DNA of 64,000 nt from Escherichia coli (GCF_003334785.1 NZ_QOWV01000002.1), one strand, 5' to 3'; positions 5,105 to 53,626 are shown, counted from the first letter of the stretch. Translations and numbers: made by a program. Notes: generated by a model not told the origin, from the sequence alone.

Positions 5105-5190
5105 CCTGGCCTGATAAGACGCGTGAGCGTCGCATCAGGCATCGTTCACCATTGCCGGATGCGGCGTTAACGCCTTATCCGGCCTACGGT
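5105..5190. repeat. BIME (pair of inverted REPs) between convergent ypfH and ypfN
   Basis: cctgataagacgcgtgagcgtcgcatcaggc ... gccggatgcggcgttaacgccttatccggcctacg. Confidence 0.8.
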
Positions 5191-16448: not shown

Positions 16449-16520
16449 GTAGGCCGGATAAGACGCTGTAGGCCGGATAAGACGCGTCAGCGTCGCATCC
16501 GGCAATCAGCATCCGGCAAT
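16449..16520. repeat. REP cluster between convergent ypfG and tktB
   Basis: taggccggataagacgc repeated twice, then cgtcgcatccggca. Confidence 0.8.
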
Positions 16521-46751: not shown

Positions 46752-47543
46752 ATGGGTAAACTCACGGGCAAGACAGCACTGATTACGGGCGCATTGCAGG
46801 GAATTGGCGAAGGAATTGCCAGAACTTTTGCACGTCATGGCGCGAACCTAATCTTGCTGGATATCTCCCCTGAGATCGAAAAGCTGGCGGACGAACTGTG
46901 TGGTCGTGGTCATCGCTGTACGGCGGTTGTCGCCGATGTGCGTGACCCGGCGTCGGTAGCCGCAGCTATCAAACGCGCGAAGGAAAAAGAAGGGCGCATT
47001 GATATCCTGGTGAATAACGCAGGCGTTTGTCGTCTGGGCAGTTTCCTCGATATGAGCGATGACGATCGCGATTTCCATATTGACATCAATATTAAAGGCG
47101 TATGGAACGTCACGAAGGCGGTGCTGCCGGAGATGATTGCCCGCAAAGATGGTCGCATTGTGATGATGTCTTCAGTCACTGGTGATATGGTGGCCGATCC
47201 TGGCGAAACGGCGTACGCCTTAACGAAAGCGGCGATTGTTGGCCTGACAAAATCGCTGGCGGTGGAGTACGCGCAGTCTGGTATTCGCGTTAACGCCATT
47301 TGCCCGGGATACGTGCGCACACCAATGGCGGAAAGCATTGCCCGCCAGTCGAACCCGGAAGATCCAGAGTCGGTGCTGACTGAAATGGCGAAAGCAATCC
47401 CGATGCGTCGCCTCGCCGATCCGCTGGAAGTCGGCGAACTGGCGGCCTTCCTCGCATCGGATGAATCCAGCTATTTAACTGGTACACAGAATGTGATTGA
47501 TGGCGGCAGCACACTGCCGGAGACGGTTAGCGTCGGTATCTGA
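46752..47543 (+). CDS. ucpA: short-chain dehydrogenase/reductase UcpA
   Basis: ORF 46686..47543 trimmed to MGKLTGKTALITGALQGIGEGIA (263 aa); Rossmann TGxxxGIG motif. Confidence 0.9.
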   Translation: MGKLTGKTALITGALQGIGEGIARTFARHGANLILLDISPEIEKLADELCGRGHRCTAVVADVRDPASVAAAIKRAKEKEGRIDILVNNAGVCRLGSFLDMSDDDRDFHIDINIKGVWNVTKAVLPEMIARKDGRIVMMSSVTGDMVADPGETAYALTKAAIVGLTKSLAVEYAQSGIRVNAICPGYVRTPMAESIARQSNPEDPESVLTEMAKAIPMRRLADPLEVGELAAFLASDESSYLTGTQNVIDGGSTLPETVSVGI

Positions 47544-47554
47544 TTCACCTCTGT

Positions 47555-47585
47555 TTCCTCCCTGCATTTGTGGGGAGGATTTCGT
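47555..47585 (+). terminator. possible weak terminator downstream of ucpA
   Basis: cctccc-tgcatttgtg-gggagg then atttcgtctt (poor U-tract). Confidence 0.35.
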
Positions 47586-47846
47586 CTTGAACTAAGTTCA
47601 CCAGGCTATTTTATTTGTCATTTTGGCCCCGGGCAGTGCTCGAAATCCTCACGTACTATGTGTACGCTCCGGTTTCTCCGCGCTGTTCGTGTCCAAACTG
47701 ACTGCAACAATTACGCCTGTTGAACCAAGTTCTTATTCCCTTTTCAACTTCCAAATCACCAAACGGTATATAAAACCGTTACTCCTTTCACGTCCGTTAT
47801 AAATATGATGGCTATTAGAAAGTCATTAAATTTATAAGGGTGCGCA
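47586..47846 (+). promoter_or_regulatory. cysP promoter region (CysB-dependent in K-12)
   Basis: 260-bp AT-rich non-coding region upstream of cysPUWAM; sites not resolved. Confidence 0.45.
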
Positions 47847-48863
47847 ATGGCCGTTAACTTACTGAAAAAGAACTCACTCGCGCTGGTCGCTTCTCTGCTG
47901 CTGGCGGGCCATGTACAGGCAACGGAACTGCTGAACAGTTCTTATGACGTCTCCCGCGAGCTGTTTGCCGCCCTGAATCCGCCGTTTGAGCAACAATGGG
48001 CAAAAGATAACGGCGGCGACAAACTGACGATAAAACAATCTCATGCCGGGTCATCAAAACAGGCGCTGGCGATTTTACAGGGCTTAAAAGCCGACGTTGT
48101 CACTTATAACCAGGTGACCGACGTACAAATCCTGCACGATAAAGGCAAGCTGATCCCGGCCGACTGGCAGTCGCGCCTGCCGAATAATAGCTCGCCGTTC
48201 TACTCCACCATGGGCTTCCTGGTGCGTAAGGGTAACCCGAAGAATATCCACGATTGGAACGACCTGGTGCGCTCCGACGTGAAGCTGATTTTCCCGAACC
48301 CGAAAACGTCGGGTAACGCGCGTTATACCTATCTGGCGGCATGGGGCGCAGCGGATAAAGCTGACGGTGGTGACAAAGGCAAAACCGAACAGTTTATGAC
48401 CCAGTTCCTGAAAAACGTTGAAGTGTTCGATACTGGCGGTCGTGGCGCGACCACCACTTTTGCCGAGCGCGGCCTGGGCGATGTGCTGATTAGCTTCGAA
48501 TCGGAAGTGAACAACATCCGTAAACAGTATGAAGCGCAGGGCTTTGAAGTGGTGATTCCGAAAACCAACATTCTGGCGGAATTCCCGGTGGCGTGGGTTG
48601 ATAAAAACGTGCAGGCCAACGGTACGGAAAAAGCCGCCAAAGCCTATCTGAACTGGCTCTATAGCCCGCAGGCGCAAACCATCATCACCGACTATTACTA
48701 CCGCGTGAATAACCCGGAGGTGATGGACAAACTGAAAGACAAATTCCCGCAGACCGAGCTGTTCCGCGTGGAAGACAAATTTGGCTCCTGGCCGGAAGTG
48801 ATGAAAACCCACTTCACCAGCGGCGGCGAGTTAGACAAGCTGTTAGCGGCGGGGCGTAACTGA
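47847..48863 (+). CDS. cysP: thiosulfate/sulfate ABC transporter periplasmic binding protein
   Basis: 338-aa ORF with signal peptide [25 protein letters not shown]. Confidence 0.95.
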
Positions 48864-49696
48864 TGTTTGCTGTCTCCTCCAGACGCGTGCTGCCGGGCTT
48901 TACCTTAAGCCTCGGCACCAGTCTGCTGTTTGTGTGCCTGATTTTGCTGCTGCCGCTCTCCGCGCTGGTGATGCAACTGGCCCAGATGAGCTGGGCGCAG
49001 TACTGGGAGGTGATCACCAACCCGCAGGTGGTCGCGGCCTACAAAGTAACGCTGCTGTCGGCGTTTGTGGCATCGATTTTTAACGGCGTTTTCGGTCTGC
49101 TGATGGCGTGGATCCTAACCCGCTATCGCTTCCCAGGCCGCACGCTGCTTGATGCGCTGATGGATTTACCCTTTGCGCTGCCAACGGCTGTCGCCGGTTT
49201 AACGCTGGCCTCGCTCTTTTCCGTAAACGGTTTTTACGGTGAATGGCTGGCGAAGTTTGATATCAAAGTCACCTATACATGGCTGGGGATTGCGGTGGCT
49301 ATGGCCTTTACCAGCATTCCGTTTGTGGTGCGTACCGTGCAGCCGGTGCTGGAAGAGTTAGGCCCGGAATATGAAGAAGCGGCGGAAACGCTTGGTGCAA
49401 CGCGCTGGCAGAGTTTCTGCAAAGTGGTGCTGCCGGAGCTTTCTCCGGCGCTGGTGGCGGGCGTGGCGCTGTCGTTTACCCGTAGTCTTGGTGAATTTGG
49501 CGCGGTGATTTTTATCGCCGGAAATATCGCGTGGAAGACGGAAGTGACGTCGCTGATGATTTTTGTGCGCTTACAGGAGTTTGATTACCCGGCAGCGAGC
49601 GCGATTGCTTCGGTGATCCTCGCGGCATCTCTGCTGCTGCTGTTCTCAATTAACACTCTGCAAAGTCGCTTTGGTCGGCGTGTGGTAGGTCATTAA
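48863..49696 (+). CDS. cysU: sulfate/thiosulfate ABC transporter permease CysU (CysT)
   Basis: 277-aa [24 protein letters not shown]; start overlaps cysP stop (TGATG). Confidence 0.95.
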   Translation: MFAVSSRRVLPGFTLSLGTSLLFVCLILLLPLSALVMQLAQMSWAQYWEVITNPQVVAAYKVTLLSAFVASIFNGVFGLLMAWILTRYRFPGRTLLDALMDLPFALPTAVAGLTLASLFSVNGFYGEWLAKFDIKVTYTWLGIAVAMAFTSIPFVVRTVQPVLEELGPEYEEAAETLGATRWQSFCKVVLPELSPALVAGVALSFTRSLGEFGAVIFIAGNIAWKTEVTSLMIFVRLQEFDYPAASAIASVILAASLLLLFSINTLQSRFGRRVVGH

Positions 49697-50571
49697 TGGC
49701 GGAAGTTACCCAATTGAAGCGTTATGACGCGCGCCCGATTAACTGGGGCAAATGGTTTCTGATTGGCATCGGGATGCTGGTTTCGGCGTTCATCCTGCTG
49801 GTGCCGATGATTTACATCTTCGTGCAGGCATTCAGCAAGGGGCTGATGCCGGTTTTACAGAATCTGGCCGATCCGGACATGCTGCACGCCATCTGGCTGA
49901 CGGTGATGATCGCGCTGATTGCCGTACCGGTAAACCTGGTGTTCGGCATTCTGCTGGCCTGGCTGGTGACGCGCTTTAACTTCCCTGGACGCCAGTTACT
50001 GCTGACGCTACTGGACATTCCGTTTGCCGTATCGCCGGTGGTTGCCGGTCTGGTGTATTTGCTGTTCTACGGCTCTAACGGCCCGCTCGGCGGTTGGCTC
50101 GACGAGCATAACCTGCAAATTATGTTCTCCTGGCCGGGAATGGTGCTGGTCACCATCTTCGTGACGTGTCCGTTTGTGGTGCGCGAACTGGTGCCGGTGA
50201 TGTTAAGCCAGGGCAGCCAGGAAGACGAAGCGGCGATTTTGCTTGGCGCGTCCGGCTGGCAGATGTTCCGTCGCGTCACATTACCGAACATCCGCTGGGC
50301 GCTGCTTTATGGCGTGGTGTTGACCAACGCCCGCGCAATTGGCGAGTTTGGCGCGGTGTCGGTGGTTTCCGGCTCGATTCGCGGCGAAACCCTGTCGCTG
50401 CCGTTACAGATTGAATTGCTGGAGCAGGACTACAACACCGTCGGCTCCTTTACCGCTGCGGCGCTGTTAACGCTGATGGCGATTATCACCCTGTTTTTAA
50501 AAAGTATGTTGCAGTGGCGCCTGGAGAATCAGGAAAAACGCGCACAGCAGGAGGAACATCATGAGCATTGA
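49696..50571 (+). CDS. cysW: sulfate/thiosulfate ABC transporter permease CysW
   Basis: 291-aa [27 protein letters not shown]; start overlaps cysU stop (TAATG). Confidence 0.95.
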
Positions 50572-51658
50572 GATTGCCAATATTAAGAAGTCGTTTGGTC
50601 GCACCCAGGTGCTGAACGATATCTCACTGGATATTCCTTCAGGTCAGATGGTCGCGTTGCTGGGGCCGTCCGGTTCCGGGAAAACCACGCTGCTGCGCAT
50701 TATCGCCGGGCTGGAGCATCAAACCAGCGGGCATATTCGCTTCCACGGCACCGACGTGAGCCGCCTGCACGCACGTGATCGTAAAGTCGGTTTCGTGTTC
50801 CAGCATTACGCGCTGTTCCGCCATATGACGGTGTTCGACAATATCGCTTTTGGCCTGACGGTGCTGCCGCGTCGCGAGCGCCCGAATGCCGCAGCCATCA
50901 AAGCGAAAGTGACAAAATTGCTGGAAATGGTCCAGCTTGCCCATCTGGCGGATCGTTATCCGGCGCAGCTTTCCGGCGGCCAGAAACAGCGCGTGGCGCT
51001 GGCGCGCGCGCTGGCTGTGGAACCGCAAATTCTGCTGCTTGATGAACCGTTTGGCGCGCTGGATGCGCAGGTGCGTAAAGAGCTGCGTCGCTGGCTGCGT
51101 CAACTCCATGAAGAACTAAAATTCACCAGCGTTTTTGTGACCCACGATCAGGAAGAAGCGACCGAAGTAGCTGATCGTGTAGTTGTGATGAGCCAGGGCA
51201 ATATTGAACAGGCTGACGCGCCGGATCAGGTATGGCGCGAACCGGCGACCCGTTTTGTGCTCGAATTTATGGGCGAAGTGAACCGCCTGCAGGGAACCAT
51301 TCGCGGCGGGCAGTTCCATGTTGGCGCGCATCGCTGGCCGCTGGGCTACACACCTGCGTATCAGGGGCCGGTGGATCTCTTCCTGCGCCCTTGGGAAGTG
51401 GATATCAGCCGCCGTACCAGCCTCGATTCGCCGCTGCCGGTACAGGTACTGGAAGCCAGCCCGAAAGGTCACTACACCCAATTAGTGGTGCAGCCGCTGG
51501 GGTGGTACAACGAACCGCTGACGGTCGTGATGCATGGCGACGATGCCCCGCAGCGTGGCGAGCGTTTATTCGTTGGTCTGCAACATGCGCGGCTGTATAA
51601 CGGCGACGAGCGTATCGAAACCCGCGATGAGGAACTTGCTCTCGCACAAAGCGCCTGA
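50561..51658 (+). CDS. cysA: sulfate/thiosulfate ABC transporter ATP-binding protein CysA
   Basis: 365-aa ORF; Walker [13 protein letters not shown] signature LSGGQKQR; overlaps cysW by 11 nt. Confidence 0.95.
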
Positions 51659-51679
51659 TAGGTTGAGTGAATGTTAAAC

Positions 51680-51712
51680 GCCCGGAGGCGCTTCCCGCGA
51701 TCCGGGCTTTTT
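51680..51712 (+). terminator. hairpin + T5 between cysA and cysM
   Basis: gcccgga-ggcgcttcccgcga-tccgggc-ttttt. Confidence 0.6.
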
Positions 51713-51729
51713 AATGGCAAGGTTTGTAA

Positions 51730-51769
51730 CCTGTAGACCTGATAAGACGCGCAAGCGTCGCATCAGGCA
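51730..51769. repeat. single REP between cysA and cysM
   Basis: cctgtagacctgataagacgcgcaagcgtcgcatcaggca. Confidence 0.7.
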
Positions 51770-51791
51770 ACACCACGTATGGATAGAGATC

Positions 51792-52703
51792 GTGAGTACA
51801 TTAGAACAAACAATAGGCAATACGCCTCTGGTGAAGTTGCAGCGAATGGGGCCGGATAACGGCAGTGAAGTGTGGTTAAAACTGGAAGGCAATAACCCGG
51901 CAGGTTCGGTGAAAGATCGTGCGGCACTTTCGATGATCGTCGAGGCGGAAAAGCGCGGGGAAATTAAACCGGGTGATGTCTTAATCGAAGCCACCAGTGG
52001 TAACACCGGCATTGCGCTGGCAATGATTGCCGCGCTGAAAGGCTATCGCATGAAATTGCTGATGCCCGACAACATGAGCCAGGAACGCCGTGCGGCGATG
52101 CGTGCTTATGGTGCGGAACTGATTCTTGTCACCAAAGAGCAGGGCATGGAAGGTGCGCGCGATCTGGCGCTGGAGATGGCGAATCGTGGCGAAGGAAAGC
52201 TGCTCGATCAGTTCAATAATCCCGATAACCCTTATGCGCATTACACCACCACTGGGCCGGAAATCTGGCAGCAAACCGGCGGGCGCATCACTCATTTTGT
52301 CTCCAGCATGGGGACGACCGGCACTATCACCGGCGTCTCACGCTTTATGCGCGAACAATCCAAACCGGTGACCATTGTCGGCCTGCAACCGGAAGAGGGC
52401 AGCAGCATTCCCGGCATTCGCCGCTGGCCTACGGAATATCTGCCGGGGATTTTCAACGCTTCTCTGGTGGATGAGGTGCTGGATATTCATCAGCGCGATG
52501 CGGAAAACACCATGCGCGAACTGGCGGTGCGGGAAGGAATATTCTGTGGCGTCAGCTCCGGCGGCGCGGTTGCCGGAGCACTGCGGGTGGCAAAAGCTAA
52601 CCCTGACGCGGTGGTGGTGGCGATCATCTGCGATCGTGGCGATCGCTACCTTTCTACCGGGGTGTTTGGGGAAGAGCATTTTAGCCAGGGGGCGGGGATT
52701 TAA
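51792..52703 (+). CDS. cysM: cysteine synthase B (O-acetylserine sulfhydrylase B)
   Basis: ORF 51714..52703 trimmed to GTG start giving (M)STLEQTIGNTPLVKLQRMGPDNG (303 aa); PLP-lysine motif SVKDRAA. Confidence 0.9.
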   Translation: MSTLEQTIGNTPLVKLQRMGPDNGSEVWLKLEGNNPAGSVKDRAALSMIVEAEKRGEIKPGDVLIEATSGNTGIALAMIAALKGYRMKLLMPDNMSQERRAAMRAYGAELILVTKEQGMEGARDLALEMANRGEGKLLDQFNNPDNPYAHYTTTGPEIWQQTGGRITHFVSSMGTTGTITGVSRFMREQSKPVTIVGLQPEEGSSIPGIRRWPTEYLPGIFNASLVDEVLDIHQRDAENTMRELAVREGIFCGVSSGGAVAGALRVAKANPDAVVVAIICDRGDRYLSTGVFGEEHFSQGAGI

Positions 52704-52734
52704 GGATTAATAGCATCGGAGACTGATGACAAAC

Positions 52735-52840
<106 letters not shown>

Positions 52841-52891
52841 ATAAACAAAGCGCACTTTTTTAACAGTTGTTGCTGCCGACAAATGCAGTAT

Positions 52892-53626
52892 TTAATTTTC
52901 GTGAGGAAACGCCGTAAGGTCATCAATCATTTTTTGAAGTATTGGTGAGTCCTGACCGTCACCCCATTGAAGAATTTTTGCGGTAAGCTGATGACGCGCT
53001 AGTGCATTGAGTCCCATCTTTTTAAGTTTATGGGAGATTTTACCCATGACTTTAATCTGACCGAATGCAGTTGCGTAGGTAATCATATTGCTCTGGATAG
53101 TGCTCATTTCATCGACTAGTAATTGCGCACGAACATCCTCTTCAAGAATACTGTCCATAGCGATGTATTTCATACCCCACATAGTTTCAATTAACATTTG
53201 AGGGAAATCAGCACAGTCCAGATCCGGCTCTTTACGGAGGCTATTTTCAAGAACGTTTAGAGCATCAGCACCTTCATCGCTGCCAAAAGGAGATTCTTCA
53301 TCCCAGCAACACATATAAAGTGGATCAGTAAAATGGCACTGGAAGTTTGGGTGTGACGTTTTAACATGTAACCCAATTTCTTCATCATCAAAATAGTAGC
53401 GATCCATGAAGTTAAACTTTGGATCTTCTTGATAGCCTTTCTTCATTTTTGCGGCAATCAATTTACTGGCTTCTTTCAGACACTGTTCTTCATTATCGAA
53501 CTCTTTTGTCTGGAATTTACCAATACTACCTACCTTGCCATAGTTGACAGCTAAACTATCCCCTTCGTAATCTATCCACCAAAATTTATTCGATTTTTCA
53601 TCGTGATAAATAAAGCGTTTTTTCAT
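52892..53626 (-). CDS. yfeS: WGR-domain protein of unknown function YfeS
   Basis: 244-aa ORF MKKRFIYHDEKSNKFWWIDYEGDSLAVNYGKVGSIGKFQTKEF (WGR-like N-terminus); visibly AT-rich relative to neighbours. Confidence 0.8.
   Translation of the reverse strand: MKKRFIYHDEKSNKFWWIDYEGDSLAVNYGKVGSIGKFQTKEFDNEEQCLKEASKLIAAKMKKGYQEDPKFNFMDRYYFDDEEIGLHVKTSHPNFQCHFTDPLYMCCWDEESPFGSDEGADALNVLENSLRKEPDLDCADFPQMLIETMWGMKYIAMDSILEEDVRAQLLVDEMSTIQSNMITYATAFGQIKVMGKISHKLKKMGLNALARHQLTAKILQWGDGQDSPILQKMIDDLTAFPHEN

Follow-up and report, generated by a model that had tools for sequence, protein, structure and literature searches.

The cysPUWA transcript of Escherichia coli has its mapped 3′ end at a GC-rich hairpin and T-run between cysA and cysM, and a separate cysM-only transcript starts just upstream of the same hairpin. 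As a whole, this arrangement is probably best read as an operon-internal intrinsic terminator combined with partial read-through, an internal promoter, and poor translation of cysM from a GTG codon. The CysB-driven cysPUWA transcript would end at the terminator, one base past the T-run, and cysM would be reached by two routes. One is the fraction of cysPUWA transcripts that reads through; the other is a weak extended -10 sigma-70 promoter (TTGCTC-N17-TGaTAGGTT), whose transcripts, starting at 51671, would also have to pass the terminator. Translation of cysM would be kept low by the GTG codon and a weak Shine-Dalgarno sequence, and the REP element in the cysM leader would be a later, Escherichia-specific insertion, dispensable and providing at most a second stable hairpin. 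An initial annotation of this DNA had suggested that cysM is tuned apart from the transporter genes, and this is supported by the transcript maps, by the only non-ATG start among the five genes, and by the weakest Shine-Dalgarno pairing.

The window, that is, the whole stretch of 64,000 nucleotides that was analyzed, is of the E. coli K-12 type. Between 51600 and 51850, the sequence shows 100% identity to K-12 strains, and a match to this 251-nt segment exists in each of the 5426 complete E. coli genomes searched, with at least 80% of it covered in 5421. Window positions are converted by x = 2591375 - NC_000913.3 coordinate, the region being the reverse complement of MG1655 2536500-2545500. 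The cysA-cysM spacer (51659-51791, 133 nt) is identical to MG1655 2539584-2539716. The cysP, cysU, cysW, and cysA genes are coupled through overlapping stop and start codons, as had been noted initially, with a single shared base at cysP/cysU (TGATG) and at cysU/cysW (TAATG), and an overlap of 11 nt at cysW/cysA. The positions first assigned to the hairpin, the T-run, the REP, and the GTG codon were all exact on inspection of the sequence (Table 1).

Table 1. Features of the cysPUWAM region, in window coordinates
Feature	Position	Strand	Remarks
cysP	47847-48863		ORF list and MG1655 annotation
cysU	48863-49696		ORF list and MG1655 annotation
cysW	49696-50571		ORF list and MG1655 annotation
cysA CDS	50561..51658	+	TGA stop at 51656-51658; 100% identical to MG1655 b2422
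-35-like hexamer TTGCTC	51636..51641	+	in the last cysA codons (L-A-L); 17 bp upstream of the -10-like hexamer
Extended -10-like element TGaTAGGTT	51656..51664	+	overlaps the cysA TGA stop; TAGGTT at 51659-51664
5′ start of cysM-only transcript	51671 (= NC_000913.3 2539704, reverse)	+	SMRT-Cappable-seq, PMC6131387, one dataset
Putative terminator stem-loop	51680..51707	+	7-bp GC-rich outer stem around a 3-bp inner helix
U-tract TTTTT, then AAT	51708..51712	+	read from the sequence; T-run columns invariant in alignment A1
3′ boundary of cysPUWA unit	51713 (= 2539662)	+	PMC10667835 Table S7; one base beyond the T-run
Insertion of ~66 nt carrying the REP	51713..51778		alignment A1
REP	51730..51769	-	core 51733-51768, Z2-type; GTAG at 51733-51736 on the + strand
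Weak Shine-Dalgarno-like GGA	51781..51783	+	8 nt before the cysM start codon
cysM CDS	51792..52703	+	GTG at 51792-51794; ORF and annotation

The hairpin and the mapped transcript ends

The outer stem of the hairpin is formed by pairing of GCCCGGA (51680-51686) with TCCGGGC (51701-51707), six of the seven pairs being G-C. It begins 21 nt past the cysA stop codon, a distance that should keep the stem clear of the terminating ribosome. The fold has a predicted energy of -19.1 kcal/mol (z = -2.84), which was equalled by 1 of 200 shuffled sequences; taken alone, as a single sequence, the E. coli hairpin is only moderately unusual. The stem abuts UUUUUAAU, with no gap between stem and U-tract, and the T-tail score is 3.88, compared with 4.17 and 5.13 for two reference tails. 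The cysA-cysM hairpin escaped a simple terminator scanner, as its 7-bp stem surrounds a 14-nt "loop" that contains the inner 3-bp helix. Each of the 5426 complete E. coli genomes has the segment of about 45 nt around the hairpin as a single copy with at least 95% identity. A terminator acting on the minus strand was considered and rejected: the reverse complement folds with -18.9 kcal/mol, yet GTTTAACATT comes next and there is no T-run.

Two transcript maps place an end between cysA and cysM. Table S7 of PMC10667835, which gives transcript units derived from the SEnd-seq data of Ju et al. 2019 in NC_000913.3 coordinates, lists operon 310 as 2539662-2543558 on the minus strand (3897 nt), containing cysA, cysP, cysU, and cysW, with TTS = 1 and zero PNPase, RNase II or RNase R "stop" sites. 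The boundary at 2539662 lies 6 nt past the stem and 55 nt past the cysA stop codon. In the SMRT-Cappable-seq study (PMC6131387), the transcript from the cysP start (2543558) comprises b2425, b2424, b2423, and b2422, and is classed as "ShorterEnd" relative to the cysPUWAM operon of RegulonDB. The row "b2421 2539704 reverse novel" of the same table describes a cysM-only transcript with a 5′-triphosphate start; the pdxK and yfeK rows agree with NC_000913.3 coordinates. Two independent full-length methods, SEnd-seq and SMRT-Cappable-seq, close the unit before cysM. The mapping of 3′ ends at the hairpin had been proposed initially as the test of a separation between cysA and cysM, and the boundary at 51713, together with the cysPUWA-only transcript, answers it in favor of that proposal.

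Other datasets bear on the same boundary less directly. Neither the curated Term-seq 3′-end tables of Adams et al. 2021 nor the TERMITe tables contain an end at cysA or cysM, which may reflect their thresholds and low expression. Long reads under-sample 5-kb transcripts, and a missing full-length cysPUWAM read does not equal complete termination. An lsrR deletion in avian pathogenic E. coli was reported to increase cysUWA about ninefold, with cysM and cysP both unchanged (PMC13393413). This indirect result fits a separation of cysUWA from cysM; the unchanged cysP, which a single cysP promoter for cysPUWA does not readily explain, weakens it. In an RNase III study (PMC3082872), cysM was grouped with other cys genes as co-regulated, a finding that is compatible with partial read-through into cysM. 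At the other end of the operon, a terminator-like hairpin (47556-47579), TCCTCCCTGCATTTGTGGGGAGGA followed by TTTCGTCTTG, lies just past the ucpA ORF, upstream of cysP; SMRT-Cappable-seq nonetheless lists a ucpA-cysP read-through transcript (b2426 and b2425) from 2544664.

For the conservation of the hairpin, loci with genes for relatives of CysM were taken from other species (80 loci, without Salmonella and Klebsiella). The spacer was taken only where cysA lies upstream of cysM, and a hairpin was counted if it reached -8 kcal/mol or lower and abutted a T-run. Such a hairpin and T-run were found in 52 of 58 orthologous Enterobacterales spacers, compared with 10.9 +/- 2.6 (maximum 18) in dinucleotide shuffles; this count, like the others given below (41/60, 57/60, and so on), ignores shared ancestry. 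It is because of this conservation that the hairpin goes beyond chance. The stem begins GCCCGG.. in Escherichia and Citrobacter, GCGGCC.. in Cedecea, Siccibacter, and Shimwellia, GGCAACCC.. in Serratia, and GGGCGGG.. in Pantoea, and the T-run is invariant beside these stems of unrelated sequence. The stem sequence has turned over while structure and position were retained, which is the signature of a selected terminator. Several properties by which intrinsic terminators are recognized are found here: a stable GC stem, a U-tract within 0-2 nt, a 3′ end in vivo, and a structure that is kept while its sequence changes. The hairpin and U-tract are most likely a genuine Rho-independent, operon-internal terminator, at which RNA polymerase would be predicted to stop alone, independently of Rho and of RNases.

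Maps of 3′ ends do not separate termination from trimming to a stable stem, and the mapped end might also have been produced by RNA processing. The hairpin would then serve mainly as an RNA-stability element: transcription would read through into cysM, the transcript would be cut downstream, and exonucleases would trim it back to the stem, so that cysPUWA is protected while the cysM segment decays faster. The stem is stable enough to invite this explanation, and the REP adds a second stem of -20 kcal/mol. Differential mRNA stability set by a REP is known from the malE-malF operon, and stem-loops that set differential stability within operons are well established, being the theme of PMC10667835. 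Nevertheless, trimming appears unlikely as the main origin of the end at 51713. The end falls at the close of the U-tract, 6 nt past the stem, where intrinsic termination typically occurs; in the operon table, the unit has no "stop" entry for PNPase, RNase II or RNase R; and an invariant T-run beside unrelated stems would be superfluous if the hairpin served only to block exonucleases. Termination at the U-tract, with partial read-through into cysM, is the reading that we prefer.

A candidate promoter on the cysA stop codon

The cysM-only transcript has its mapped 5′ start in the short stretch between the cysA stop codon and the hairpin, 13 nt from the former and 9 nt from the latter. A search for a promoter in 51713..51791, downstream of the hairpin, had been proposed initially; none was found there by scanner or by eye, and the only mapped start lies upstream of the hairpin. 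The start falls 7 nt past the TAGGTT hexamer, within the 5-9 nt expected downstream of a -10 element, in a single dataset; the Cappable-seq supplement contains nothing at this position. The two candidate hexamers match the consensus at 3/6 positions each, and a consensus scanner reported no sigma-70-like site anywhere in 47300-53200, TTGCTC-N17-TGaTAGGTT included. The pattern TTG-N17-TGnTAnnnT is expected 1.6 times by chance in 64 kb, and in a single genome the motif occurs at chance frequency. In full-text searches of the open literature, neither a promoter of E. coli cysM nor read-through from cysA to cysM was found to be discussed.

The support comes from conservation between species. Of 60 orthologues, 43 have TTG at the -35 position, 56 end cysA with TGA, and 45 have TAnnnT directly after the stop. 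All three promoter features are co-located in 41 of 60 orthologous loci, from Escherichia to Serratia, Yersinia, Pantoea, and Erwinia. A count over whole 6-kb loci gave a single occurrence of the motif in 45 of 81 of them, in nearly every case at the cysA stop codon. Within the -35 TTG, one base alone can vary freely without changing the protein, namely the third base of a Leu/Val/Ile codon; it is T in 45 of 53 cases, compared with 9.5 expected from codon use elsewhere in cysA. The start-site dataset and this conservation point to TTGCTC-N17-TGaTAGGTT as a candidate weak internal promoter for cysM. It would be an odd arrangement, with a promoter firing directly into a terminator that occupies +10 to +43.

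The order of the elements is kept across the spacers: promoter-like motif, 13-24 nt, hairpin, T-run, 17-36 nt, GTG. It is also found where cysM has another neighbor. In Kluyvera genomosp. 1 (L012 67-2430), cysM is preceded not by cysA but by a 787-aa gene that was judged by eye to be rhamnosidase-like; in strain RIT691, a gene other than cysA precedes cysM, and Enterobacter sp. ENT03 has a different upstream region (L021, L019). In all three, the region before cysM still ends in TAGACC-N17-TGATAnnTT. In Rahnella bruchi (L034 1289-2263), cysA and cysM are separated by a gene that appears by eye to be prepilin-peptidase-like, and upstream of cysM there is a new TTGCCA-N17-TGtTAATTT with a hairpin and T7. 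In both Kluyvera and Rahnella, a promoter-form motif, a hairpin, and a T-run all still lie 5′ of cysM, despite the non-cysA neighbor.

That the conserved order of elements travels with cysM when its upstream neighbor is not cysA would also be expected if promoter, hairpin, and T-run formed a dedicated, regulated leader of cysM, in other words, an attenuator. Most transcripts starting at 51671 would then stop at 51713 as a 43-nt RNA. Read-through at other loci can depend on the start site and the growth condition (SMRT-Cappable-seq, PMC6131387). The geometry speaks against such a leader, as the 9 nt between start and stem offer no space for an alternative anti-terminator structure. No Rfam family was matched in 47000-53500 besides REP-type matches, and the variation of the stem sequence between genera argues against a specific site for a ligand or protein. 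A dedicated leader of this kind is considered distinctly improbable, and so is the part of the proposal in which a trans-acting factor, or else nucleotide or sulfur status, would control read-through.

Translation of cysM and the REP element

The GTG at 51792 is the annotated start of cysM and encodes residue 1 of the crystallized protein, in keeping with its initial assignment: residues 1-303 of PDB 2bhs match residues 1-303 of the 303-aa CysM protein. GTG is used in 57 of 60 Enterobacterales orthologues that adjoin cysA (and TTG in two), as well as in Dickeya and Pectobacterium, where cysM is not adjacent to cysA. Relatives outside the Enterobacterales apparently have mostly ATG starts. Among cysP, cysU, cysW, cysA, and cysM, only cysM lacks an ATG start, and pairing of the 22 nt before its start codon with the 16S 3′ end is the weakest of the five (-3.1 kcal/mol, compared with -5.1 for cysP, -6.1 for cysU, -6.2 for cysW, and -10.3 for cysA). 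The TGGAcAG preceding cysM is conserved in relatives with short spacers. These sequence features suggest low translation initiation on cysM, and a lower level of CysM.

Two further possibilities at the start of cysM were rejected. An ATG directly after the T-run (51714) opens a frame (ORF 51714-52703) that crosses the REP in frame and would give a 329-aa CysM; it lacks a Shine-Dalgarno sequence, the additional stretch is missing outside Escherichia, and one additional T in a divergent E. coli locus (L002) destroys the frame. A helix that would mask the GTG (51772-51797) has a predicted energy of only -4.4 kcal/mol, like that of unrelated spacers, and was taken as chance.

The core of the REP (51733-51768, minus strand) has no mismatches to the consensus of the Z2-type REP family. 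It folds with -20 kcal/mol (z = -4.6) and ends 22 nt before the cysM GTG. The REP-derived Rfam family naRNA4 gives a partial match on the minus strand (51737-51769; 34.1 bits, below the gathering score of 59.5) that is limited to model positions 44-76. When the REP was included in the 251-nt query, megablast reported a median of 5 and a maximum of 18 places per E. coli genome; the hairpin alone gave one. In alignment A1, made with relatives that have short spacers, E. coli and E. albertii show the insertion of about 66 nt that carries the REP, and Citrobacter, Lelliottia, Siccibacter, and Shimwellia lack it; from the T-run to the GTG there are 84 nt in Escherichia, compared with 17-36 nt in most other genera. 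The REP had been described initially as one of the elements that separate cysA from cysM. It is indeed present, but as an Escherichia-specific insertion that lies outside the conserved arrangement.

REP-type sequences occur elsewhere in the window and in related spacers. On the minus strand, the class of the cysA-cysM REP is represented twice more (5105-5140 and 16468-16503), compared with 0.00 expected in the window. Two REP-type hairpins (52764-52846) lie between the convergent genes cysM (ending at 52703) and yfeS (ending at 52892); Rfam ES036/CssrF matches 52764-52806 on the minus strand with 40.9 bits, above its gathering score, and naRNA4 matches 52810-52846 on the plus strand, below it. 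They probably constitute a BIME at the 3′ end of cysM. The end of the cysM 3′-UTR is given in PMC10667835 as 2538651, corresponding to window position 52724.

In Enterobacter-type spacers (L011, L013, L015-L018, L047, L003), the space is filled by two inverted REP-like palindromes (GCCCGGTGGCGCT.CGCTTACCGGGCCTAC ... GTAGGCC...), the second of which is followed by T5-7 and also serves as the terminator stem. The spacer of a locus labelled Pseudocitrobacter faecalis (L004 1404-1565) measures 159 nt and contains a near-identical E. coli-type hairpin with two REPs past it; the CysM proteins of this locus and of E. coli share 97% identity. The REP content of the cysA-cysM spacer, to judge from such comparisons, evidently undergoes fast turnover. 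The E. coli hairpin aligns with a REP-like stem of Citrobacter; the two may share common descent, with the terminator derived from a REP. The idea that the E. coli hairpin is itself a repeated REP of the Enterobacter/Citrobacter type was rejected, as it is single-copy in E. coli and has no fuzzy match in the window.

REP and BIME elements have been linked to attenuation and to mRNA stabilization, and the REP, rather than the hairpin, might be the functional regulator, acting through Rho-dependent attenuation, stabilization of the upstream RNA, or masking of the cysM ribosome-binding site, with the hairpin being secondary. Its very stable fold, its position 22 nt before the GTG, and its retention in 5421 of 5426 E. 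coli genomes would suit such a role. However, Citrobacter, Lelliottia, Siccibacter, Shimwellia, and most other genera keep the terminator and the GTG without a REP, the mapped 3′ end lies at the U-tract and not at the REP, and the predicted helix at the start codon is weak (-4.4 kcal/mol), making a primary role for the REP very improbable. It is scarcely credible that the hairpin is a chance palindrome in one uniform cysPUWAM transcript: the modest z of -2.84, the silent scanner, and the two Term-seq tables without the site (Adams et al. 2021, TERMITe) are outweighed by the occurrence in 52 of 58 spacers compared with about 11 expected, by the single copy in all E. coli genomes, and by two full-length methods in which the unit stops short of cysM. 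A uniform transcript is contradicted by the mapped 3′ end at 51713.

Relation to known systems and significance

Operon-internal intrinsic terminators that set different levels of upstream and downstream expression are known from rplL-rpoB and rpsU-dnaG. Further cases, prs-dauA and dapA-bamC, are described in PMC6131387. The cysA-cysM spacer resembles them in having a GC hairpin and U-tract between co-directional genes of one annotated operon, with a 3′ end at the U-tract, and in that the downstream gene, cysM, still needs either read-through or its own promoter. It differs in that the candidate promoter lies upstream of the terminator, on the preceding stop codon, so that the terminator is met within the first 43 nt. 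The candidate promoter itself is similar to extended -10 sigma-70 promoters (TGnTATAAT with a poor -35) in its TGn and TAnnnT, its TTG at 17 bp, and the 5′-triphosphate end 7 nt downstream, and is unlike them in that its hexamers match at only 3/6 positions each and half of the element consists of coding sequence and a stop codon.

Like the Z2-type REP and BIME elements exemplified by malE-malF, the cysA-cysM REP is an extragenic consensus palindrome of about 36 nt with a GTAG end, present in many copies per genome and located inside an operon. Unlike them, it is single, with no BIME pair, and lies 71 nt past the stop codon, downstream of a terminator; as it is not conserved outside Escherichia, a role in the conserved regulation is not implied. 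The GTG of lacI is a known non-ATG start that holds translation low. The GTG of cysM and its weak Shine-Dalgarno sequence, conserved across a bacterial order, resemble such low-translation starts, a likeness that is read here from the sequence.

The arrangement was largely already known, as the key ends are present in public tables. E. coli is the best-studied bacterium, and each of the four components (intrinsic terminator, internal promoter, REP, non-ATG start) belongs to a known kind of feature. Less familiar are the position of the candidate promoter upstream of the terminator, on a stop codon, and the conservation of the whole arrangement, GTG included, across an order. The order-wide GTG, the position of the terminator, and the stop-codon motif provide a tidy case of selection at synonymous and stop-codon positions, not a new principle. 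A regulated leader, if true, would constitute an undescribed, cysM-specific control in Enterobacterales that is independent of CysB.

In databases and most papers, cysPUWAM is treated as one operon with one promoter, whereas the sequence and two transcript maps describe the transporter genes and cysteine synthase B as separate expression units. The distinction matters for the interpretation of cys-regulon transcriptomes, where cysM often behaves unlike cysUWA, for the polar effects of cysA mutations, and for the engineering of cysteine and thiosulfate assimilation.
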